Shown here piece after piece: positions 16,922 through 26,439 of a DNA stretch of 64,000 bases. A program made the position numbers and the translations under genes. Location: assembly GCA_963804165.1 (NCBI GenBank), contig CAWDPO010000041.1, forward strand, positions 32,001 to 96,000, in the 5' to 3' direction. The notes beneath the pieces were generated by a model. The model saw only the letters and a program-made list of their open reading frames with translations. It was not told the DNA's origin and ran no database searches. The stretch comes from an uncultured delta proteobacterium. GTDB lineage: Bacteria; Desulfobacterota; Binatia; UBA9968. The first letter of the stretch is position 1. Each line of letters begins with the position of its first letter.

Positions 16922-17114
16922 GTGTCAATAGCCGCGAGCGAGTCTCTAACGATCACGTACACGAAACACGATCAGGTTTATCGGACTTGACCCATTCCGT
17001 GCGACCGGTGTAGTTGTGGCGAAACAAAGACGGGCGTACGTGATACGCCCCTACGGAAATCCGTGTTTGCCGAATTGTTGGCTGGTAACATTTTGTTTTT
17101 TGAAGGAGGAATGT

Positions 17115-17489
17115 ATGCGCGTGCTCAAAATTAACGAATTAGCGGAAAAGCCGATGGACACCGCCACGCCGATCGCGGGATGGACCGGCGGAGAGGTGAG
17201 CCGGACCCGGCAAGCGATTATCGGCGACGGGCAGTCGGAAAATTTTCGCTGCAACGTGGTGAATTTTCGCGTTGGCGCGACGACGGGCTGGCATGTGCAC
17301 GACTGCGATCAGATTCTCGTCGTTACGGCGGGCAAAGGTTTTGCCGCAACGGAATCCGAGCAGCGGGAGATTACGGTCGGAGATGTCGTGCATATCAAAG
17401 CTGGTGAGCGCCACTGGCATGGCGCATCGGCAGAATCGCCATTGTCACATATCACGGTGACGACGGTCGGAAGCACTTCGAAGCATTAG
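17115..17489 (+). CDS. Cupin-domain protein
   Basis: WHVH..DQIL.V..G.G and GD.V.I.AGE.HWHGA; AAGGAGG RBS. Confidence 0.88.
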   Translation: MRVLKINELAEKPMDTATPIAGWTGGEVSRTRQAIIGDGQSENFRCNVVNFRVGATTGWHVHDCDQILVVTAGKGFAATESEQREITVGDVVHIKAGERHWHGASAESPLSHITVTTVGSTSKH

Positions 17490-17602
17490 CGCTTGTGTTG
17501 CGATAATCCCCCGGATGGGCTTAGTGTCAGGCCGGTGAAAACCGCCATCCAGAAAAGGCGCATACCATGCGCCCCTACGAAAATGCCCGGACTTTGGGAT
17601 CT

Positions 17603-18346
17603 TTAACGGCCCCCACGTTTCGTCTTGATCTCGTAACCGAACAGATCGCTGCGATAGAAACCGGCCGTGCGCAGAACAAGTTTCTTCTTGTGTAAATAAT
17701 TTCGCTCGACGAACAACACAGGGGAGCCGGTGGGGATTTCCAAGTGGGCCGAAACCTGGTGGTCCGCGAGCTTGGCGCTGACAACCAGCTTGAGGCCAGC
17801 AATCTTGATCCCCAGCCGGTCTTCAATGATGTTCGTGAGCGGCTGTTTCAGCAGCCGGTCTCGCGGGACCTTATCAAGCATGCGGGCGGGGACGTAGGAA
17901 TTCACGAACGCGAGGGGGCGACCGTATGCCATCCTCACCCGCGTGATCTTCGTGATTTTTTCATCCGCATCCAAGTTAAAATCTCGGCGCAGCTCTGGCG
18001 CGGCCGTTTTTGTGTCGATCCGCAGCACTTTGAAGCTCGTACCTTCCGGATTGATGCTCACAAGATTTGCCGCATCGATTTCGAGATTAATCGGCTGCTT
18101 GACCGGTCCGCTCCAGGTGACGAAAGTTCCCTTGGCGCGCTCGCGGCGCACCAAGCCTTCGCGGGTCAAGTCTGCGAGGGCTTGGCGAACCGTGATGACG
18201 CTAACGTCGAGGCGTCGCGCCAGATCCAATTCGCCGGGGAGCTGGAATCCCGTGCGCCATTCGCCCGATAAAATATTGTCGCGGAAAGCGGTCATGACTT
18301 TAAAGTAGAGCGGCACTGGAGAGGGAGAACTGCTAGCGAGGCGCAT
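17603..18346 (-). CDS. GntR-family regulator (HutC/UTRA type)
   Basis: LPGE..LA..L.VS..TVRQAL..L..EGLV.RE..KGTFV HTH followed by UTRA domain. Confidence 0.9.
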   Translation of the reverse strand: MRLASSSPSPVPLYFKVMTAFRDNILSGEWRTGFQLPGELDLARRLDVSVITVRQALADLTREGLVRRERAKGTFVTWSGPVKQPINLEIDAANLVSINPEGTSFKVLRIDTKTAAPELRRDFNLDADEKITKITRVRMAYGRPLAFVNSYVPARMLDKVPRDRLLKQPLTNIIEDRLGIKIAGLKLVVSAKLADHQVSAHLEIPTGSPVLFVERNYLHKKKLVLRTAGFYRSDLFGYEIKTKRGGR

Positions 18347-18382
18347 GTCGATTACCTATATGTTTGCAACAGGAGGTCAATT
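18336..18382 (-). promoter_or_regulatory. Promoter/operator-like segment, copy 1 (directly upstream of gntR ATG)
   Basis: About 37 of 48 positions identical to 19813-19860; minus strand TTGACCTCCT...CATATA...ACATGCGC. Confidence 0.5.
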
Positions 18383-18391
18383 TGCCGGATA

Positions 18392-19069
18392 TTATGGCGA
18401 GTTTTCCTTGGATCGTGCCGCGGCAGGAATTGTTCGTAGCGCTTCCAAGATCTGCTCGTTGGTGGGTCTCTTCTTATAGTCTGTTTCAATAAAGCGCCAA
18501 CGCACGACACCCTGTTTGTCGATGACATAAGTCGCCGGGTGCGGCCAGCCCTTGTTGTTCGGATTTAAGATTCCATACCGGTTGATGACCTTGTGATCTT
18601 TGTCTTCGAGTAGCGGAAAATCGAGATCGCCGGTAAATCTCTCTTTGAGTTTTTGCACGAATTTTTTCGAATCATCGTGACTGTCGACGCTGACCGCGAG
18701 GATTTGAACCTGATTTTTTTCCTCTTTGGTTAGGAGGCCTTTCAGCTCACCGAGCTGTTGTGTGCAGTAGGGTCACCATTGGCCACGATAAAACACCAAT
18801 ACAACATTCATTTTGCGATAGACTTCTGAAAGAGTAATTCTCCGTCCATCCAAGTTTTCAAGCGTAAAGTCCGGCGCGGTATCCCCGACTTTGACTCTCT
18901 CCAGGTCGGTCGGCGGCAGATCCGCGACGTCTTTAGGGCCTAATTGTGCATTAGCCACGGCAACGGCTAGGTAAAGGAAACTGAATGCAATCGTTATTGC
19001 TAAGCGGTTTCGGAAAGTAGAGCTTTCTCTTGGACGCTCGATACGCCAAATGTGTTTTCCCCACGTCAT
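18392..19069 (-). CDS. Peroxiredoxin-like (AhpC/TSA) selenoprotein with signal peptide; Sec TGA at 18773-18775
   Basis: Single frame (226 codons): GDTAPDFTL...LVFYRGQW-TGA-PYCTQQLGEL...LAVSVD...HPATYVIDKQGVVRW; TGA replaces the first Cys of CxxC. Confidence 0.9.
18743..18772 (-). promoter_or_regulatory. SECIS-like hairpin
   Basis: UGA-N15-CAGCUC GGU GAGCUG. Confidence 0.7.
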
Positions 19070-19214
19070 GGCAATTGTCTCCTTTCGTCACAAAGTAAAT
19101 CCAGATCATTTACACCGCTCGTTATCCAGCGTTACGTCACGGTCTATGAACGATATTCCGCGACAATAGGTTTCCGGATCGAGCAAATCGTCAAATGAGC
19201 ATCACAGCGCCCGC

Positions 19215-19706
19215 CTATTGTTGTTGCGCCTTTCTCTTTTTGAAGAACTGGATATGACTCAACGCGTCGGCGGCAACGATACGTCCGATGGGGCCGATAC
19301 TGTACGAGGCATCACACACCTTTTTGTCCGAATCCAGGATGAAATTCGTGGCGTGGATGATCTTTCTACGCTCTTCCCAGAAAGCGCCGACCTTGTCGGC
19401 GTCTCTCGGCACTTCAAGTCCATAGGCCACGGGAAAGGTGAGTTGCAACTTGTCGACGGTCTCTTTCGCTTTGTCCAAGGGGTCGACCGAGAGAGCCACC
19501 ACGTCGACATTTTCCTTTTTGAATTCTTCGATGTGGGATTGGTAGTCGGCCAACTGCCGCATGCAGTACGGTCACCAACTGCCGCGATAGAAAATCAGCG
19601 CGGCGTACTCGCCCGTGAGGTCCTGGGGCAGACGAAGTGTTTGACCGGCGGTCGTTTGCACCTGGTACTCCGGGAACGAATAGCCAAAGTTGAGCTGTCG
19701 TGCCAT
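19215..19706 (-). CDS. Peroxiredoxin-like selenoprotein; Sec TGA at 19572-19574
   Basis: Single frame (164 codons): MARQLNFGYSFPEY...LIFYRGSW-TGA-PYCMRQLADY...VVALSVD; GGGGAG RBS; the N-terminal part is too short for the ORF track. Confidence 0.9.
19542..19571 (-). promoter_or_regulatory. Weak SECIS-like hairpin
   Basis: UGA-N16-AGUU GGCC GACU at the position equivalent to the other Prx hairpin (alternative fold CGGC AGUUG GCCG). Confidence 0.45.
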
Positions 19707-19812
19707 ATATTCTCCCCTCAGAATTTAATCATCGAACTTCGAACCCCTGCGCAGTTGCGACGCTACCCACCGAACTTCGCGTTGCTCCAGGCGGTCATCG
19801 ACTTGGGATTTC

Positions 19813-19860
19813 GCGACGCGCATGTTGACTGCTTATATGATTAATAGTAGGAGGTCAATT
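19813..19860 (-). promoter_or_regulatory. Promoter/operator-like segment, copy 2
   Basis: Homologous to 18336-18382; lies in the divergent intergenic region of the selenoprotein cluster. Confidence 0.5.
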
Positions 19861-19929
19861 GATTTGTGTCGCTGGCGTGCTGTGTAAATTCGCCGCGGCG
19901 CGACAATTTTTATGGGGGAGGTTCTCATT

Positions 19930-20439
19930 ATGGCGGAGCATTCAGCAGGGAAGAGCGGCCAGCCGGGAGGAATGCCCGGCCGTCCGATCGGCACGGTGCG
20001 CGTCGATATCGCGCGCCAGGAGCACAAAACGTTCGAGGCGGTTTTCAAGACCGAGGACAAGTCATTTCAGCTCATGATCGACGAGCCGGAAATTCGCGGC
20101 GGCAAAGGCACGGGCCCGACGCCGCTGGGTTACTTCGTCACCGGCGCGGCTTCCTGCTTGATGATGCAGTACGCCAACGTTTTGAAGGAGAAGCCGATGC
20201 CGGTGGAAAGCATCAAGATGCTGGCGCGGGCGCACAACGACCGCGACGCGCGGGTCTTCACCGATATGATTTACCAGGTCGATCTCACCGGGTCGATCTC
20301 CGAGGCCGATGCGGAAACGCTGGCAAAGGCGGCCAGTGCGCGCTGCTTCGTAGAGAACACTATCGCCAAGGCGCTGCCGATCACGACAGAAGTAAGCGTC
20401 AATGGAAAAAAGGTCGTGTCGTTCACACGAAATAGTTAA
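19930..20439 (+). CDS. OsmC/Ohr-family protein (Cys form)
   Basis: DEP..RGG.G.GPTPL.YF..GAASC and downstream RCFVENT; GGGGGAGG RBS. Confidence 0.88.
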   Translation: MAEHSAGKSGQPGGMPGRPIGTVRVDIARQEHKTFEAVFKTEDKSFQLMIDEPEIRGGKGTGPTPLGYFVTGAASCLMMQYANVLKEKPMPVESIKMLARAHNDRDARVFTDMIYQVDLTGSISEADAETLAKAASARCFVENTIAKALPITTEVSVNGKKVVSFTRNS

Positions 20440-20475
20440 ATCGCCCATCCACCGCGGGAAGATTAGGAAATCACG

Positions 20476-20637
20476 ATGATCCACCTTTACTACTGGACTA
20501 CGCCGAACGGACACAAGATCACGATCTTCCTAGAGGAAGCTGGGCTGCCGTATTCGATCAAACCGGTCAATATTTCCGTGGTCGGCATGATACCGCGGTC
20601 GGGTGGGAAACGGTTAATCGACGCCTGCAACCGGTAA
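20476..20637 (+). pseudogene. Truncated GST N-terminus (YfcG/YghU-like)
   Basis: MIHLYYWTTPNGHKITIFLEEAGLPYSIKPVNIS then unrelated tail and TAA after 53 codons; TPNG motif of Nu-class GSTs. Confidence 0.75.
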
Positions 20638-20651
20638 GAGGAGAGCGGGTT

Positions 20652-21323
20652 ATGCCCTGGATTAAAATAATTGCCGAGCATGAAGCCGAGGGCGAGCTTA
20701 AAGAGGTCTATAGGAAGATCCGCGAGCAGCGTCAGGGTGAGAAGATCAACCAGGATCGCGATGCGTCCGCCGGCGGGCCGCCGGTGAGCCCGCCGATGCT
20801 GCACAGTCTGAATCCCAAAGCGATGTGGCACACCGCCGAGCTGATGTGGGAGATCATGCGCGGGGAGTCGCGGCTGACCACGGCGCAGCGCGAGATGATC
20901 GCCACCGTGACATCGGCGACGCTGCACTGCCGCTTCTGAACCGTCGCCCACGCAGAGTTTCTGCGTCAGGAAGGCGGCGACGATTTATCGGTAGAGCAAG
21001 TCAAAGACGATTGGCGGCAGATGGAGCTGACCGAAGCCGAGTACACAATGTTGGAATTTGCGGAGAAACTAACGCTCACGCCGAGCAACATGCGCGAAGC
21101 GGACGTGCAGAAATTGCGCGACGTCGGCTGGACCGATCGCGACATCCTCGATATCGTCCACGTGTGCGCCTATTTTAACTTTCGTGTGCGAGTCGTCGAC
21201 GGGCTCGGACTGGAAGTTGCCGATTGGCAGATCCAGCGCGCGAGAGCCGGCGCGCAGCGCGCCGCCAAGTTGGCTGAAGAGCGCGGTGTGGCCATGCCAT
21301 CTGATCCTTGGAAGACACGTTGA
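20652..21323 (+). CDS. AhpD/CMD-like peroxidase-related selenoprotein 1; Sec TGA at 20937-20939
   Basis: Single frame (224 codons): REMIATVTSATLH-CRF-TGA-TVAHAEFLR...MLEFAEKLTLTP...FNFRVR; C-x-x-U-x-x-x-H. Confidence 0.9.
20940..20982 (+). promoter_or_regulatory. SECIS-like hairpin
   Basis: Upper stem ACGCAGA GUU UCUGCGU; lower stem CGUCGCC/GGCGACG. Confidence 0.78.
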
Positions 21324-21332
21324 GGAAAAGTA

Positions 21333-21980
21333 ATGAGCTTCATCAAAGTTATTTACGAGTCCGAAGCGACGGGCGAGCTAAAAGAAGTTTACGAGAGAAC
21401 GCTTAGTCGCTTAAGTCCATCCGTGCGCCAGCGACGCGGCGACAAGCTGCCACCGATCGTGAGAATTTTTAGCCTTTGTCCGGCGCTGCTCGAAGCGCGG
21501 GTGGGCTTCGACAAGGGCATTTACCGGCCCGGCCATTCCGGCTTGGGCCGGCGCAAGGAAGAGCTGATCGCGACTCAGGTGGCGGCGCTGAGTGGCTGCC
21601 GGTTTTGAGGCATCGGCCACGGAGAGTTTCTCCGTGTCGACGGCAAGATGGCGGTGGAGGAAGTCGCCAAGGTGATCTCCAACTGGCGTGAGGCCGATCT
21701 GGACGAGCAGGAAAAAGCCATGCTCGCGTTCACCGAAAAGTTTACACTCACGCCGAGTCAAATGACCGACGCCGATCTCGAGAAGCTGCGCCAGGCGGGC
21801 TTCAGCGACGAACAGATTCTTTCCATCGCTTTGGGCGCCGGCTATCGAAACTGGGTGGATCGCATCGCTGATCTGCTCGGCGTCGAGGAAGAAAAGTTCG
21901 ACTTCCCGGAGGAAATTTTGAAAGCCTTCGGCGTCACCCGCGAGCAGCTTGAGACCTCGCTCTACGAGGATAACCGATGA
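21333..21980 (+). CDS. AhpD/CMD-like selenoprotein 2; Sec TGA at 21606-21608
   Basis: Single frame (216 codons): ELIATQVAALSG-CRF-TGA-GIGHGEFLR...MLAFTEKFTLTP...NWVDRIAD. Confidence 0.9.
21609..21640 (+). promoter_or_regulatory. SECIS-like hairpin
   Basis: CACGGAGA GUU UCUCCGUG, extended by UCGG/UCGA. Confidence 0.78.
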
Positions 21981-22420
21981 GCCGCTTGCAGACCGTCATG
22001 GGAACGAGAATCGCGGATCTGCTTGGCGCGGCGCCGGGCGCGCTCGAAGCGGACAGCGCCATGCGCACTCTGCTCATCGAACATTTGACGCCGCGGCTCT
22101 TCAGTTTGATCGGTATCGTGGTAGCCGGTTGCCTCCGCTGCGAGCGTTTCGCCGACGCGCTGCGCGCCCCACTGGATCAGCCATCGGCCCAACAGGCTGC
22201 CCGTGATTGGCGGGCGCTTGAACTTTCGGCGGCGGAAAAGGCGATACTTGCCTACGCGGAAAAGGGGACTCTCGACGAGGCCTCGGTGCGCTGGCGGGAC
22301 GTAGATCAGCTACGCGCGGCGGGTCTCGACGACAGGGATATTCTCCTGATCGCAACGGCTATCGCTTATCATAATTACTCGATTCGCATGGCAGCGGCTT
22401 TTGACGTCGCGCCGTGCTGA
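21977..22420 (+). CDS. AhpD/CMD-like protein, short Cys form (CLRC)
   Basis: GCLRC, DWRALELSAAEKAILAYAEK.T, LRAAGLDDRDIL...YHNY..RMA align with neighbouring AhpD proteins; ATGA overlap with upstream gene. Confidence 0.8.
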   Translation: MSRLQTVMGTRIADLLGAAPGALEADSAMRTLLIEHLTPRLFSLIGIVVAGCLRCERFADALRAPLDQPSAQQAARDWRALELSAAEKAILAYAEKGTLDEASVRWRDVDQLRAAGLDDRDILLIATAIAYHNYSIRMAAAFDVAPC

Positions 22421-22456
22421 GGGTGTCGGCGTACAAAAAACCAGCGCGCGAAAAGA

Positions 22457-23395
22457 ATGTACGTTCTTGAAGTTTGGAAGGATTATGGCATGCGCGGAAT
22501 AACTCCTAGACGAGAGCAAGGGATGGCAGATCCGGTGTTGGCCGAGATGGTTCATGCAACGGGCGCTACGGAGTCCCGCCACTACGCGGCGGTGAAACCG
22601 ACCATTCAGGCCTATCGCGCCAGTTGGGTGAAATTGGCGCCCTATCGAGATGGTCCCGTGAATTCGCAGCGGGTCCAGGTCGACGACCCCGCGGGGATAA
22701 CTGCACAGGTCAAAGCGAAAGCGATGGAGTTGGGCGCGAACCTGATCGGGGTCTGCCGCTTGCAGCCGCATATGATCGATCTCGGCTCGGAGGTATCACA
22801 GGAGTTCGTGATCGCGTGCTGCGTCGCGGAGGATTACGATAAGGTCTTGCGGGGCGCAGATGCGGTGGAAGAAGAGGCGATGCGAACCTATGCGAAGTGC
22901 ACCGAGATCGCCACGGCGCTGGCCGCTTACGTGCGCGAGATGGGCTACCCGGCGATCGCCCACCACAACGGCGCCAGCGAGGTGCAAGCGATACCGATTT
23001 TCTATCAAGTCGGGTTCGGCGAGCTGGGCCGCCACGGCAGTTTGATCAACGAAAAATACGGCGCGAGTTTTCGTCCGGGTTTCGTGACGACGGACCTGCC
23101 GCTGGTGGAAGATCAGCCGCGGGAATTCGGCGTGCAGGACTTCTGCATGAACTGCAACGTCTGCCAGCGCAACTGTCCGGGCGATGCGATACCGCAGGAT
23201 CATGTGGTCACCCACGGCATCAAACGTTGGCTGATCGATCTAGAGAAATGTTATCCCTACTCGCGACTGCGCGAAGAGTACTGTCATCTCTGCGTCGACG
23301 CGTGTCCGTATATCGTGAAGTCTTATCCCGAAACCTATAGAGCGTTCATGAAGGAGCGCAAACAAGTGGGCTACAAGACGCCGAAAACATATTGA
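22457..23395 (+). CDS. Reductive dehalogenase-like / QueG-superfamily cobalamin and 2x[4Fe-4S] protein
   Basis: GANLIGV, GFGELGRHG.LI..KYG...R...VTTDLPL, FCxxCxxCxxxCP and C-x10-CxxCxxxCP; no Tat leader; start uncertain (22457, 22523). Confidence 0.8.
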   Translation: MYVLEVWKDYGMRGITPRREQGMADPVLAEMVHATGATESRHYAAVKPTIQAYRASWVKLAPYRDGPVNSQRVQVDDPAGITAQVKAKAMELGANLIGVCRLQPHMIDLGSEVSQEFVIACCVAEDYDKVLRGADAVEEEAMRTYAKCTEIATALAAYVREMGYPAIAHHNGASEVQAIPIFYQVGFGELGRHGSLINEKYGASFRPGFVTTDLPLVEDQPREFGVQDFCMNCNVCQRNCPGDAIPQDHVVTHGIKRWLIDLEKCYPYSRLREEYCHLCVDACPYIVKSYPETYRAFMKERKQVGYKTPKTY

Positions 23396-23673
23396 TGGAA
23401 ACCGACGATCAGGGAGGATTCTCCCGCCAAGGCGCAAAGGCGCCAAGTTCGGAAAGTTTCACAATGGAAAAACTCTACGTTAACGAAATCGGTCCCGATG
23501 GCGCCGTCAGCACCGTAGGCTTGTTTTACTCGCAGGCCGAGGCCGAAAAGATTGTCGGCATGCTGCGCGCCAATCCAGACCGAGCAAGCTATAGGTATGA
23601 AATCGTCGAAGCAGTCAGACATATCTTGTCTGAGAAGCAAGCGCGTCGGGCCGTGGCCGGTCAGAAGGAGTAG
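23392..23673 (+). CDS. Small hypothetical protein (start may be 23464)
   Basis: Fills the gap between operon genes; stop adjoins the AAGGAG RBS of the next gene. Confidence 0.55.
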   Translation: MMETDDQGGFSRQGAKAPSSESFTMEKLYVNEIGPDGAVSTVGLFYSQAEAEKIVGMLRANPDRASYRYEIVEAVRHILSEKQARRAVAGQKE

Positions 23674-23675
23674 CC

Positions 23676-24227
23676 ATGCCCTATATTAAAACGGTGCCGC
23701 CGGCCGAGGCTACCGGCAAACTCAAAGAAGTCTATGAGTCGGGCTCCGGCCCATCGGCGGCGCGCGGCAAGGTCTCTATGATCCGCCAGGTGCAAAGCCT
23801 CAATCCCGACAACCTCGCCGCCTGGCGCGCGCTCGACGTATCGATCATGCGCGGCGAATCGCGCATCACGCGCCGCCAACGCGAGATGATCGCGACGGTG
23901 GTGTCGGCGACCAATCACTGCAGCTATTGAATGACCGCGCACGGAGAGGCTCTCCGTACCGAATCGAACGACGATCCTCTGGTCGAAGGGATTAAACAAG
24001 ATTACACACAGTTGAATTTATCCCCGGCAGAGCGGGCCATGTTGGATTACGCGGTCAAATTGACGGTCGCACCGTCGACGGCGAGTGAAACGGATATCCA
24101 TACTCTACGCACCCACGGCTTCGACGACCGCGACATTTTGGATATCGTCTACGTGATCTGCCTTTACAATTTCAACGACCGGATGGCCGATGCCGCCGGC
24201 ATTACCGGGCATGATTTTTTTAGATGA
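23676..24227 (+). CDS. AhpD/CMD-like selenoprotein 3; Sec TGA at 23928-23930
   Basis: Single frame (184 codons): REMIATVVSATNH-CSY-TGA-MTAHGEALR...MLDYAVKLT..P...YNFNDRMADA. Confidence 0.92.
23931..23957 (+). promoter_or_regulatory. SECIS-like hairpin
   Basis: UGA-N10-ACGGAGA GGC UCUCCGU, same spacing as the other two AhpD genes. Confidence 0.78.
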
Positions 24228-24274
24228 GATCATTCAATCGTTCGAGTGTAACGCCCAGTTAGATAGGAGGAAGC

Positions 24275-24820
24275 ATGAGCAAACCCTTAGGCAGGATCGA
24301 TCGAGAAGCGTTTCGGCAAGTGCACAAGGAGCAACAAGAACGGGCGAAACAGGGGCCGGAAGGCTATACGACAACGACGCGGGCGGTGATCAGGCTCATA
24401 GAAAACCAATTGAAAGAGGCGCGCATCGGCGAATACACCATTCAATGCGATGAGGCGAAGTCGCGCAAGGGCGGCGGCAAGGCGCCGTCACCGCTGCAAT
24501 ACTTCGTCGCGGCGACCGGCTTTTGAATGTTCAGCCAACTGGCGCGGTACGCGTCACAACTGGACATCGAAATCGAGGACGCCGAGATGGATATCCGAAT
24601 GACCTATGACACGCGAGGGAAATTGCTGCTGGAAGACGTGTCGCCGGGGTGCAATGATCTGACCTACGTTTTCAAGATTAAGAGCCCGGCGCCGTCCGAC
24701 AAGGTGCAAGAGATGCTGCGGCTGATCGAGAAGGGCTGCCACACGATCAATTCATTGAAAAATCCCGTGCCGGTCGCCGGAAAGCTGATTCATAACGGTC
24801 AGGAGATCGCCGCGCTGTGA
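24275..24820 (+). CDS. OsmC/Ohr-family selenoprotein; Sec TGA at 24524-24526
   Basis: Single frame (182 codons): DE...KGGG.APSPLQYFVAATGF-TGA-MFSQ aligns with GPTPLGYFVTGAAS-C-LMMQ of the paralog at 19930; second Cys in KGCHTINS. Confidence 0.9.
24527..24567 (+). promoter_or_regulatory. SECIS-like hairpin
   Basis: Lower stem AUGUUCAG/CUGGACAU, upper stem UGGCGCG GUA CGCGUCA. Confidence 0.8.
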
Positions 24821-24868
24821 TTCCTACATGTTCAACTTAGCGAAGTCGACGTCAGGAGGCAGAATTTC

Positions 24869-25657
24869 ATGATCGAGCTTTATCACAACGATATGTCGGT
24901 TTGCGCGCAGAAGGTGCGATTCGCCTTGGCGGAAAAGAAGCTTTCCTGGGAGGGGCACCATCTAAATCTTCGCGCCGGCGATCAGCAGAAGCCGGAATAT
25001 TTAAAACTTAATCCCAACGCGGTGGTGCCGACTTTGGTGGACGATGGGAACGTTATTATCGAGTCTACGGTGATCTGCGAATATCTCGACGATACCTATC
25101 CTGAGCCAAAGCTTAAACCCGCCGATGCGCTGGGGCGGGCGCGCATGCGCTTATGGACCAAGCAGCTCGACGAAGGCGTGCACGCGGCAACCAGCGTCGT
25201 CAGCTCGGCCATCGCGTTTCGCTATCAGAAGCTCGCTATCGGCATGGAAGCGCTCGAAGAGTTTCACGAGAAGATGCCCGACCCGGTGAAGCGGGAAAAA
25301 AGCTGGGAGAATGTCACCAAGGGCGTCGAATCGCGTTTCTTTCCCGAGGCGATCAAGCGCTTCGACAGGCTGCTCGCGGACATGGAAGTGTCGTTGACAG
25401 ACTCGCCGTGGCTTGCCGGCCGGGAATTTTCCCTCGCGGATATTGGCTACGCTCCGTACATCACTCGGCTCGATCATCTGCAGTTGCAGTTTCTCTGGGA
25501 CAAGCGGCCCCATATCCCCGATTGGTACGACCGCTTGCGTGAACGCCGTGCTTACAACGAGGCGCTGGAAAAATGGTTCAACGCGAATTACCTGCCGCTA
25601 ATGAAAGAAAAGGGTCTCGAAGTTCGCGACAAAATCAAAGCGATTGTGGCGGGATAA
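24869..25657 (+). CDS. Glutathione S-transferase family protein
   Basis: MSVCAQKVR, LNPNAVVPTL, ESTVICEYLD, WLAG..FSLADI motifs. Confidence 0.92.
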   Translation: MIELYHNDMSVCAQKVRFALAEKKLSWEGHHLNLRAGDQQKPEYLKLNPNAVVPTLVDDGNVIIESTVICEYLDDTYPEPKLKPADALGRARMRLWTKQLDEGVHAATSVVSSAIAFRYQKLAIGMEALEEFHEKMPDPVKREKSWENVTKGVESRFFPEAIKRFDRLLADMEVSLTDSPWLAGREFSLADIGYAPYITRLDHLQLQFLWDKRPHIPDWYDRLRERRAYNEALEKWFNANYLPLMKEKGLEVRDKIKAIVAG

Positions 25658-25914
25658 CTCTGTCTGATTCCCGAGAGGTGAAATACGGAAAGCGCCAATT
25701 TGGACGCTTTGGGCAGAGTTCGTGCGATGGCGCGAGCGCAGTGGATGCTCTAACTCTGTCCTCAACAAACCGCAATACTCTCCATTGCCCACCCTCAGCG
25801 TCCGTTTTGCCAGCGTCATCAACTGCAACACTCGCCACGCCGGTCAGAATCAAATATTTGCGCGGCCTGGTCAAATACGGCGGTTGGTTTCCTGGTGCGG
25901 AAAAGCGAAGCGGC

Positions 25915-25977
25915 GGCTAACGTTTCGTTAACGCGCGCGCCGTTCGCGGCGCGTCGGTGTTGAACGCTGGGTTGGGC
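25915..25977 (-). mobile_element. Integron attC site (63 bp)
   Basis: Minus strand GCCCAAC-ccagc-GTTCAAC-accga-CGCGCCG-cgaa-CGGCGCG-cgc-GTTAAC-gaaac-GTTAGCC: RYYYAAC and GTTRRRY boxes, 5-nt spacers, L boxes with one extrahelical base, 9 bp after a stop codon. Confidence 0.88.
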
Positions 25978-25986
25978 GTCATTGTG

Positions 25987-26439
25987 TCAGCGGGCTACGG
26001 CCGCCTCAGCAATACCTGCCAGCGCCTTGCGTAAGTTCCCGATGACGGCGCACTGCGTAACCCCATGGCGTTGCCCCAGGAATTCGGGATCGTTGTAGCC
26101 GAGCCAAACTTGGGACGATGCGTCCTCCCACACCAGGGCCTTGAGCGGAAGATCGATTCCCACAGTCTGCGCGCACTCCATGAAGGGCGTGCCGCCTTGC
26201 GGGTTGCCAAAGATGATGACCTCGGTTGGCCGCAGAGTCATGCCGACTTTTGCTGCACCCGCCGCGTGATCGATCCGCGCAAACACGTTCAGCCCACGTT
26301 GTTTGACCAGATCCTCGAGCCGGTTCATCGTGTCCTTAGCACTGTGGGGGCTCTTCACGACGAGCAAGCCATCTGCGGCGCTAGCAAGCGAACTGGCGGC
26401 CAAGCAGGCAACGATTGCAAGGGAGCGAAGCGCATTCAC
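25987..26439 (-). CDS. DUF302-family exported protein (gene cassette ORF)
   Basis: VFARIDH...A...G..LRPT....FGNP..GTP.M.....G.DLPLK.LVW; AAGGAG RBS then GTG 26439; signal peptide. Confidence 0.9.
   Translation of the reverse strand: MNALRSLAIVACLAASSLASAADGLLVVKSPHSAKDTMNRLEDLVKQRGLNVFARIDHAAGAAKVGMTLRPTEVIIFGNPQGGTPFMECAQTVGIDLPLKALVWEDASSQVWLGYNDPEFLGQRHGVTQCAVIGNLRKALAGIAEAAVAR

Follow-up and report, generated by a model that had tools for sequence, protein, structure and literature searches.

Short hairpins with G-led triloops after in-frame UGA codons are probable bacterial SECIS elements of AhpD-, OsmC- and Prx-like genes in an uncultured delta proteobacterium

A stretch of DNA from an uncultured delta proteobacterium carries a run of redox genes with in-frame UGA codons, most of which are followed at short distance by a small hairpin, and this raises the question whether these hairpins are selenocysteine insertion sequence (SECIS) elements by which the UGAs are read as selenocysteine (Sec), and whether they define a model of their own for the lineage. 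The window, i.e., the whole stretch of DNA that was analysed, is 64,000 nucleotides long and corresponds to C41:32001-96000 (contig CAWDPO010000041.1) of genome G000 (GCA_963804165.1), a 7.50-Mb assembly of 46 contigs with 55.8% G+C and 80.9% completeness; all coordinates given without a contig are window positions. Six genes between 18392 and 24820 contain a single in-frame UGA each (two Prx-like, three AhpD-like and one OsmC-like), and the Sec genes of these three families are packed together with two Cys paralogs into about 6.5 kb. Our analysis indicates with high confidence that the hairpins are bacterial SECIS (bSECIS) elements and that the UGAs are read as Sec in the AhpD-, OsmC- and Prx-like genes.

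The three AhpD-like selenoprotein genes lie on the plus strand and share one hairpin design. AhpD1 (20652..21323; CRFU motif; 223 aa with TGA read as U) has its Sec codon 96 at 20937-20939 and the hairpin ACGCAGA-GUU-UCUGCGU at 20950..20966; AhpD2 (21333..21980; CRFU) has Sec codon 92 at 21606-21608 and ACGGAGA-GUU-UCUCCGU at 21619..21635, with a possible eighth pair C21618-G21636; and AhpD4 (23676..24227; CSYU) has Sec codon 85 at 23928-23930 and ACGGAGA-GGC-UCUCCGU at 23941..23957. The preliminary description of the locus had given a 7-bp stem beginning at the 11th base after the UGA and a triloop GUU, GUU or GGC with its G at +18, and this is exact in all three genes, the spacer being 10 nt in each. 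The C-G to G-C swap that it reported, which changes Ala to Gly and keeps the pairing, is also real, and pairs the second base of the Ala or Gly codon with the third base of a Leu codon (GCA...CUG versus GGA...CUC). In the OsmC-like selenoprotein gene (24275..24820, plus strand; GFUMFS; Sec codon 84 at 24524-24526), the upper hairpin UGGCGCG-GUA-CGCGUCA occupies 24540-24556 of a whole element at 24528..24566, after a 13-nt spacer and with the loop G at +21. This upper part was found as described, whereas the lower stem, put at 8 bp before, consists of 7 bp (24528-24534 with 24560-24566) plus three pairs that take in the UGA itself. On the minus strand, the Prx-like (AhpC/TSA) selenoprotein gene PrxA (18392..19069; WUPYC; UGA at 18775-18773) carries the previously reported CAGCUC-GGU-GAGCUG at 18757-18743, with a 15-nt spacer and the loop G at +22. 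The distance from UGA to loop is 17 nt in AhpD1, AhpD2 and AhpD4, 20 nt in the OsmC gene and 21 nt in PrxA.

The UGA column of AhpD is the second Cys of the CxxC motif and is TGC or TGT in Cys-type homologs. When read through the UGA, AhpD1, AhpD2 and AhpD4 score 131.5, 99.0 and 141.1 bits against TIGR01926 (peroxidase-related enzyme), all above the cut-off of 81.8, and AhpD1 also matches the Pfam family CMD. The OsmC Sec gene scores 151 bits against NF041052 (OsmC-related (seleno)protein; cut-off 95) with a match that spans the UGA, while PrxA and the second Prx-like selenoprotein gene, PrxB (19215..19706, minus strand; WUPYC; UGA at 19574-19572), match Pfam AhpC-TSA (PF00578) at 1.6e-37 and 2.9e-22, respectively, and both contain the UxxC motif. 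Two Cys paralogs without the hairpin served as internal controls, i.e., an AhpD-like gene at 21977..22420 (plus strand; CLRC; 54.1 bits against TIGR01926, under the cut-off) and an OsmC-like gene at 19912..20439 (plus strand; SCLMMQ; 90.8 bits against NF041052, slightly under the cut-off).

The motif used for chance estimates was a hairpin with a stem of 6-8 bp, at most one G.U pair and a GNN triloop, whose start lies 8-18 nt behind the triplet under test. Genome-wide it follows 0.44-0.50% of each of eight triplet types; in the cluster it follows five of the six in-frame UGAs, which is far beyond chance, with AhpD paralogy leaving about three independent families. Folding energies were calculated with ViennaRNA on 48-nt segments and compared with shuffles as z-scores. 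The minimum free energy (MFE) was -20.7 kcal/mol for AhpD1 (z -3.27), -18.9 for AhpD2 (z -1.98), -12.2 for AhpD4 (z -0.94), -17.4 for the OsmC gene (z -2.66) and -8.3 for PrxA (z -0.04), and the PrxB segment gave a z of +0.16. The segment of the Cys AhpD paralog, taken from its second Cys codon (22139), folded no better than its shuffles (z +0.83), and that of the Cys OsmC paralog, taken from the Cys codon at 20155, gave a z of +0.94.

The hairpin of AhpD is widely kept in relatives. When AhpD4 was searched in six frames against G000 and 60 relatives (61 genomes), dozens of matches were returned, nearly every full-length one with exactly one TGA; besides the window's own gene there were 15 full-length matches of 72-92% identity, 14 with one in-frame TGA and one with two. 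In 401 genomes of the phylum, further homologs of the Sec and the Cys type came to light in other families and classes, into which the hairpin accompanies the gene, and removal of duplicates and of two unpublished genomes left 62 Sec-type and 13 Cys-type distinct sequences. A hairpin with 5 or more bp and a loop that starts between +15 and +27 is present in 61 Sec-type and 7 Cys-type sequences, and a G stands in the first two loop positions in 61 and 5, respectively; a G-led triloop on at least 6 bp was found in 53 Sec-type sequences and in none of the Cys type, and an energy of -8 kcal/mol or below in 52 and 1. Two distant Sec-type homologs, L067:1651 and L071:1779 (genomes G370 and G418; UIGSHAAVAAS), carry ACGCCGC-GGUC/GGUU-GCGGCGU, a 7-bp stem with a GGUN tetraloop at the same start as the triloop hairpin, and several AhpD relatives have AGUUG, AGUUA or AGGUN pentaloops at the site. 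Pairing in the named 7-bp helix was counted directly in an ungapped alignment of 62 rows, 59 of them distinct: 90.6% of the cells form pairs, a share that drops to 30-65% if the partner is shifted by 1-3 columns. Among the distinct rows, pair 17-27 is GC in 38, CG in 17 and unpaired in 4, pair 18-26 is AU in 43 and GU in 12, and the loop-closing pair 20-24 is AU in 47 and GC in 4, the GC form arising by Glu to Gly plus Phe to Ala or Ser.

The strongest argument for selection on the RNA itself is the codon skew in the AhpD stem, which was counted in the 59 distinct rows against genome-wide usage; these rows span paralog clades at 35-50% protein identity but are related, so that their independence is overstated. 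Arg is encoded by CGU in 46/53 cases (12.6% in the genome), Phe by UUU in 34/35 (45.4%), Gly by GGA or GGG in 38/40 (29.4%), Ala by GCA in 12/17 (10.8%) and, at codon 7, by GCU in 14/17 (12.8%), Leu by CUC or CUG in 55/55 (56.3%), and Glu by GAG in 49/49 (49.6%), where the third base is the loop G. The synonyms of the three codons between the UGA and the stem vary freely. Because the signal sits within the reading frame, it would fix the peptide H-[A/G]-E-F/A-L-R in the Sec-type AhpD proteins; H-[A/G]-E-F-L-R occurs in these proteins and is absent from the Cys-type homologs, and this comparison suggests that the SECIS signal shapes the AhpD protein sequence.

In the other two families the hairpins are conserved in their own ways. 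Across 23 distinct OsmC orthologs 97.8% of the cells are paired, in columns so nearly invariant that a shuffle control is uninformative. The in-genome OsmC paralog on contig C38 keeps 7/7 pairs, three of which differ on both sides (UGGCGCG/CGCGUCA versus UUUCCCG/CGGGGAA), and in the four GrdB-family genes A-U pairs are exchanged for U-A and C-G pairs for U-A. The nearest OsmC loci are in metagenome-assembled genomes (MAGs) titled uncultured 'Deltaproteobacteria bacterium', 'Candidatus Binatia bacterium' and 'Thermodesulfobacteriota bacterium', and the same hairpin is found in single records labelled Chloroflexota and Udaeobacter, both the labels and the binning of MAGs being uncertain. The PrxA hairpin is kept in 23 of 25 distinct orthologs, in 7 as a G-led triloop and in 16 as CAGCU-CGGGA-AGCUG, a form that is found because a Glu to Lys change (GAG to AAG) opened the closing pair. 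One PrxA-like copy, L169:1735 (G012:C118), contains a second in-frame stop (UAG for CAG) inside the hairpin region and may, judging from this stop, be a pseudogene. PrxB lacks the triloop, and two mutually exclusive small hairpins follow its UGA (region 19547-19574, minus strand), ACUGC-AUGCG-GCAGU and the weak CGGC-AGUUG-GCCG (19559-19547). The latter appears the likelier SECIS candidate because the site is kept in 28 of 29 distinct PrxB-type sequences, with a loop AG[G/U]UN or GGU at +17/+18. The common denominator of the hairpins is an apical G-[G/U] and not the triloop as such, because PrxA and PrxB orthologs often carry non-triloop forms.

The genome encodes the complete Sec machinery. 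One tRNA-SeC (anticodon tca) was found by aragorn at C24:201780-201874, i.e., on another contig, and the tRNA scan found no tRNA gene in the window. The selA, selB and selD genes all score above their curated cut-offs and adjoin one another at C16:139949-144339; a second match of selB covers positions 527-580 of its 581-position profile, and selD carries one in-frame TGA, with the UGA at C16:140845. SelD is itself a selenoprotein, and by our own reading of the sequence its UGA is followed by a GUU triloop at +34 on a 7-pair stem with one mismatch. When the ribosome holds a UGA in the A site, the C-terminal domain of SelB would meet the apical G-[G/U] of the 17-nt stem-loop 10-15 nt downstream, SelB would bring Sec-tRNA(Sec) in competition with release factor 2, and thiol/peroxide redox proteins of the AhpD-like (CxxU), OsmC-like (UxxS) and Prx-like (UxxC) kinds would receive their catalytic Sec at the UGA. 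The binding by SelB and the insertion of Sec itself are the predicted steps here, for which the observed anatomy, conservation, restriction to Sec-type genes, codon selection at the RNA level and machinery argue.

Several results weigh against this interpretation. The fold energy by itself is unremarkable for AhpD4 and PrxA, and RNAalifold on the mixed AhpD alignment returned only 4 pairs at -2.98 kcal/mol. A search of 17000-26000 gave no Rfam family, with three chance-level matches to unrelated families (E up to 10); the Rfam SECIS models describe eukaryote-type elements, and this miss thus says little. The OsmC orthologs vary by one-sided (wobble) changes only, with no double changes. In AhpD, the compensatory swap is real but its 17 compensated cells stand for few events, because a quick maximum-likelihood tree of 63 proteins needs just 3 changes between GC and CG, of which well-supported branches force 1. 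Cys-type homologs had been expected to lack the stem, and this holds for the triloop (0/13), with L069 as a partial counter-example that has a comparably stable GCGCCAU-GGCC-AUGGCGC (-10.4 kcal/mol, loop at +21). This gene, L069:1738 (G385:C124; CAYC), carries a perfect 7-bp palindromic hairpin where Sec-type genes have the SECIS, and the hairpin may be due to chance or be a relic of a former SECIS after Sec-to-Cys conversion.

If the hairpin were a by-product of the conserved peptide H-[A/G]-E-F-L-R and had no RNA function, recoding would depend on another signal or on none. The stem is indeed encoded by a peptide conserved in Sec-type proteins, and the covarying cells are mostly inherited from 1-3 events, but the synonymous sites are fixed to the pairing bases, above all in CGU and GAG, the Cys-type homologs keep neither the peptide nor the triloop hairpin, and FdhA, GrdB, UGSC, OsmC and Prx, with unrelated peptides, share the architecture at the same distance, and we regard this explanation as very improbable. 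We give the least credence of all to the idea that the UGAs are true stops or disabling mutations of split genes or pseudogenes and the hairpins unrelated structures, e.g., pause or attenuator elements. Standard gene calling would terminate the genes at the UGA, as this idea has it, but the UGA persists in the 15 full-length AhpD4 matches, whose frame stays open beyond it, and in dozens of remoter matches, it stands on the catalytic Cys column, the family profiles run across it, and the genome encodes the complete Sec machinery. The hairpins could also be SECIS elements that SelB sees as a pentaloop (e.g., A-GUU-U or C-GGN-R), the closing pair not being formed and the triloop being an idealisation by folding programs; this is possible, though we do not think it probable. 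The closing pair is lost in 16/25 PrxA orthologs, pentaloops occupy the same site in PrxB-type genes and several AhpD relatives, and the consensus in the available part of PMC13188914 permits a flanking N1-N2 pair around G[G|U]N, whereas the closing pair covaries in AhpD (A-U 47, G-C 4) and ViennaRNA predicts it closed.

The reading of the hairpins as bSECIS elements agrees with what is known of such signals. The E. coli fdhF SECIS, the prototype read by SelB, has an apical G-U about 20 nt after the UGA and a core upper stem-loop about 11 nt after it; the hairpins described here would work in a similar way, but have no sequence similarity to it, a 3-nt loop and no bulged U. The FdhA gene of genome G000 carries GUCCCCG-GUC-UGGGGAC with its loop G at +20. 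The bSECIS consensus, i.e., the bSECISearch model of Zhang and Gladyshev as restated in the available part of a 2026 review (PMC13188914), has an apical loop of 3-9 nt on a stem of 4-16 bp, a G in the first two loop positions, mostly as N1-G[G|U]N-N2 in which N1 pairs with N2, 16-37 nt from UGA to loop, and an MFE of -7.5 kcal/mol or below. Our five hairpins have 3-nt loops (GUU, GUU, GGC, GUA and GGU), stems of 6-8 bp and MFE values of -8.3 to -20.7, and they agree with this restated consensus in every item (position within the reading frame, loop, stem, G[G|U]N, spacing and MFE), differing from it only in lying at its minimal end, with a 3-nt loop, a 17-nt hairpin and a spacing of 17-21 nt. 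The AhpD-like and OsmC-like selenoprotein families were introduced, with predicted SECIS elements, in the Sargasso Sea study of 2005 (PMC1088965, in the part available), and the part of PMC13188914 consulted lists AhpD-like (TIGR01926, CxxU), OsmC-like, Prx-like (UxxC), rhodanese (NF041203), UGSC and YeeE/YedE selenoproteins and mentions operon clustering of Prx-like and AhpD-like genes. As far as these portions of the two sources go, the genes here have the same Sec position and redox motif as the known families, except that OsmC-like selenoproteins are UxxT in the published tables and UxxS (UMFS) here (PMC1088965, PMC13188914). The AhpD, OsmC and Prx genes of this locus add new members to known families and use a known signal.

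Whether the motif can be used to find selenoproteins was examined in the whole genome, with a descriptor scan in preference to a covariance model, as a 6-8 bp stem and one fixed loop base hold too few bits for 15 Mb. The bare motif follows 1082 of 231,941 TGA triplets (46.7 per 10,000), compared with 44-50 per 10,000 for seven other triplets; this is the background rate, without genome-wide specificity, and the bare motif is by itself useless. A coding filter (in-frame TGA, at least 30 open codons before and at least 25 after it, codon-usage score above 0.15 on both sides) left 1194 TGAs, of which 25 have the motif where about 5.6 are expected, and an NCBIfam family profile spans the UGA in 17 of these 25. 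The 17 supported genes are FdhA, four GrdB-family, two PrdB-like, three UGSC, two OsmC-related, three AhpD-like, one YciW-related and one YeeE/YedE-like gene, the three AhpD-like genes and one of the OsmC-related ones being those of the window and the other 13 lying elsewhere in the genome; several of the profile matches lie below the curated cut-off and denote homology across the UGA rather than membership of the named equivalog. The YeeE/YedE-like product is a membrane protein with the motif GFUPGTC (C43:35959). The other eight candidates were rejected, having no family profile across the UGA, among them a clear gene boundary behind an IclR-type regulator. The second loop position is G or U in 17/17 supported and 2/8 unsupported motif hits, and the G-N-N loop of the preliminary description, correct as to its leading G, is better written G-[G/U]-N. 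Its range of +18 to +22 for the loop G is true for 16/17 supported motif genes. The PrxA loop likewise reads G[G/U]N, and PrxA carries the motif but fails the coding-score filter (0.11 upstream).

For a list independent of the hairpin, all 1194 junction peptides were searched in the genome with tblastn, those whose UGA column is mainly stop or Cys in paralogs were retained, and these were then checked with family profiles. The list comprises 22 Sec genes, 14 of them with the triloop. Eight genes remain: two YciW-related genes (AGUG and CGGGGC), three rhodanese-related genes (CGUGU, CGUGC and a 5-bp GUU triloop) and a ResA-like gene (AGUU), whose loops are given by our own reading, and two of the PrxB type, with AGUUG and AGGUG loops on stems of 4-5 bp. 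The supported selenoprotein genes include a DedA-rhodanese fusion (C17:6428) and a cation/proton antiporter-rhodanese fusion (C40:202681) in which the Sec lies in the rhodanese domain. Four paralog-based candidates, C33:7175, C41:43879, C10:66030 and C24:80964, were not supported by the profile check. Together with PrxA and SelD, at least 27 Sec genes are supported, 18 of them (about two thirds) with a triloop; this is a lower bound, as the families covered were those with in-genome paralogs or the motif and the genome is incomplete. Among eight in-genome Cys paralogs of other Sec families, six lack a hairpin, the other two form weak hairpins (-5.6 and -0.8 kcal/mol) and the triloop is absent from all; the eight include the OsmC Cys paralog C6:197804, which reads GFCMFSQL versus GFUMFSQL in the Sec gene. 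The proposed use of the motif for finding selenoproteins is thus borne out when reading-frame and coding filters are added, but not for the bare motif, and the filtered model as a gene finder misses about a third of the Sec genes.

On the second question, the proposal that the hairpins define a lineage-specific SECIS model is not supported. The motif is the shortest form of the general bSECIS model as given in the available part of PMC13188914. The AhpD hairpin occurs in other families and classes of the phylum and the OsmC hairpin in MAGs with other phylum labels, and the triloop is present in only 14 of the 22 Sec genes found without a hairpin criterion. The sequence of the hairpin follows the gene family and its architecture follows the general model, and nothing tested marks lineage specificity.

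The Sec genes stand in a redox island at 17603-25657, which also contains a GntR/UTRA regulator (17603-18346, minus strand), a 4Fe-4S dicluster domain protein of 312 aa (22457-23395), an open reading frame of 93 aa without a family and a glutathione S-transferase gene at 24869-25657. The gene order of the island is repeated in relatives, e.g., at G015:C2:385768-391609, in G004:C9 and in G019:C16. A short open reading frame at 20478-20637 (MIHLYYWTTPNGHKITIFLEEAGLPYSIKPVNIS...) resembles by eye the N-terminal part of a glutathione S-transferase and then stops, and from this resemblance the remnant of a gene may lie here between the Cys OsmC paralog and AhpD1.

These results raise no new recoding question, since the families, the signal and the mechanism are all already published. 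They do bear on annotation, as 27 or more genes in this genome, along with many in its relatives, would be split at the UGA by standard gene calling, and a simple descriptor (UGA, 8-18 nt, a 6-8 bp stem and a G[G/U]N triloop) with reading-frame filters recovers about two thirds of the Sec genes. We consider it unlikely that SelB of the lineage labelled deltaproteobacterial or Binatia has settled on an unusually compact signal, a G[G/U]N triloop hairpin of 17 nt placed 10-13 nt after the UGA. If this were true, the signal would constrain only about six codons and move easily between gene families, it could have allowed the paralog expansions (three AhpD, four GrdB-family and three UGSC genes) and the selenoproteome of at least 27 genes, and it would be a minimal recoding tag for selenoprotein engineering. 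The AhpD genes also provide a clean natural example of dual coding, in which an RNA signal dictates a protein sequence, H-[A/G]-E-F-L-R, in the Sec-type proteins only.

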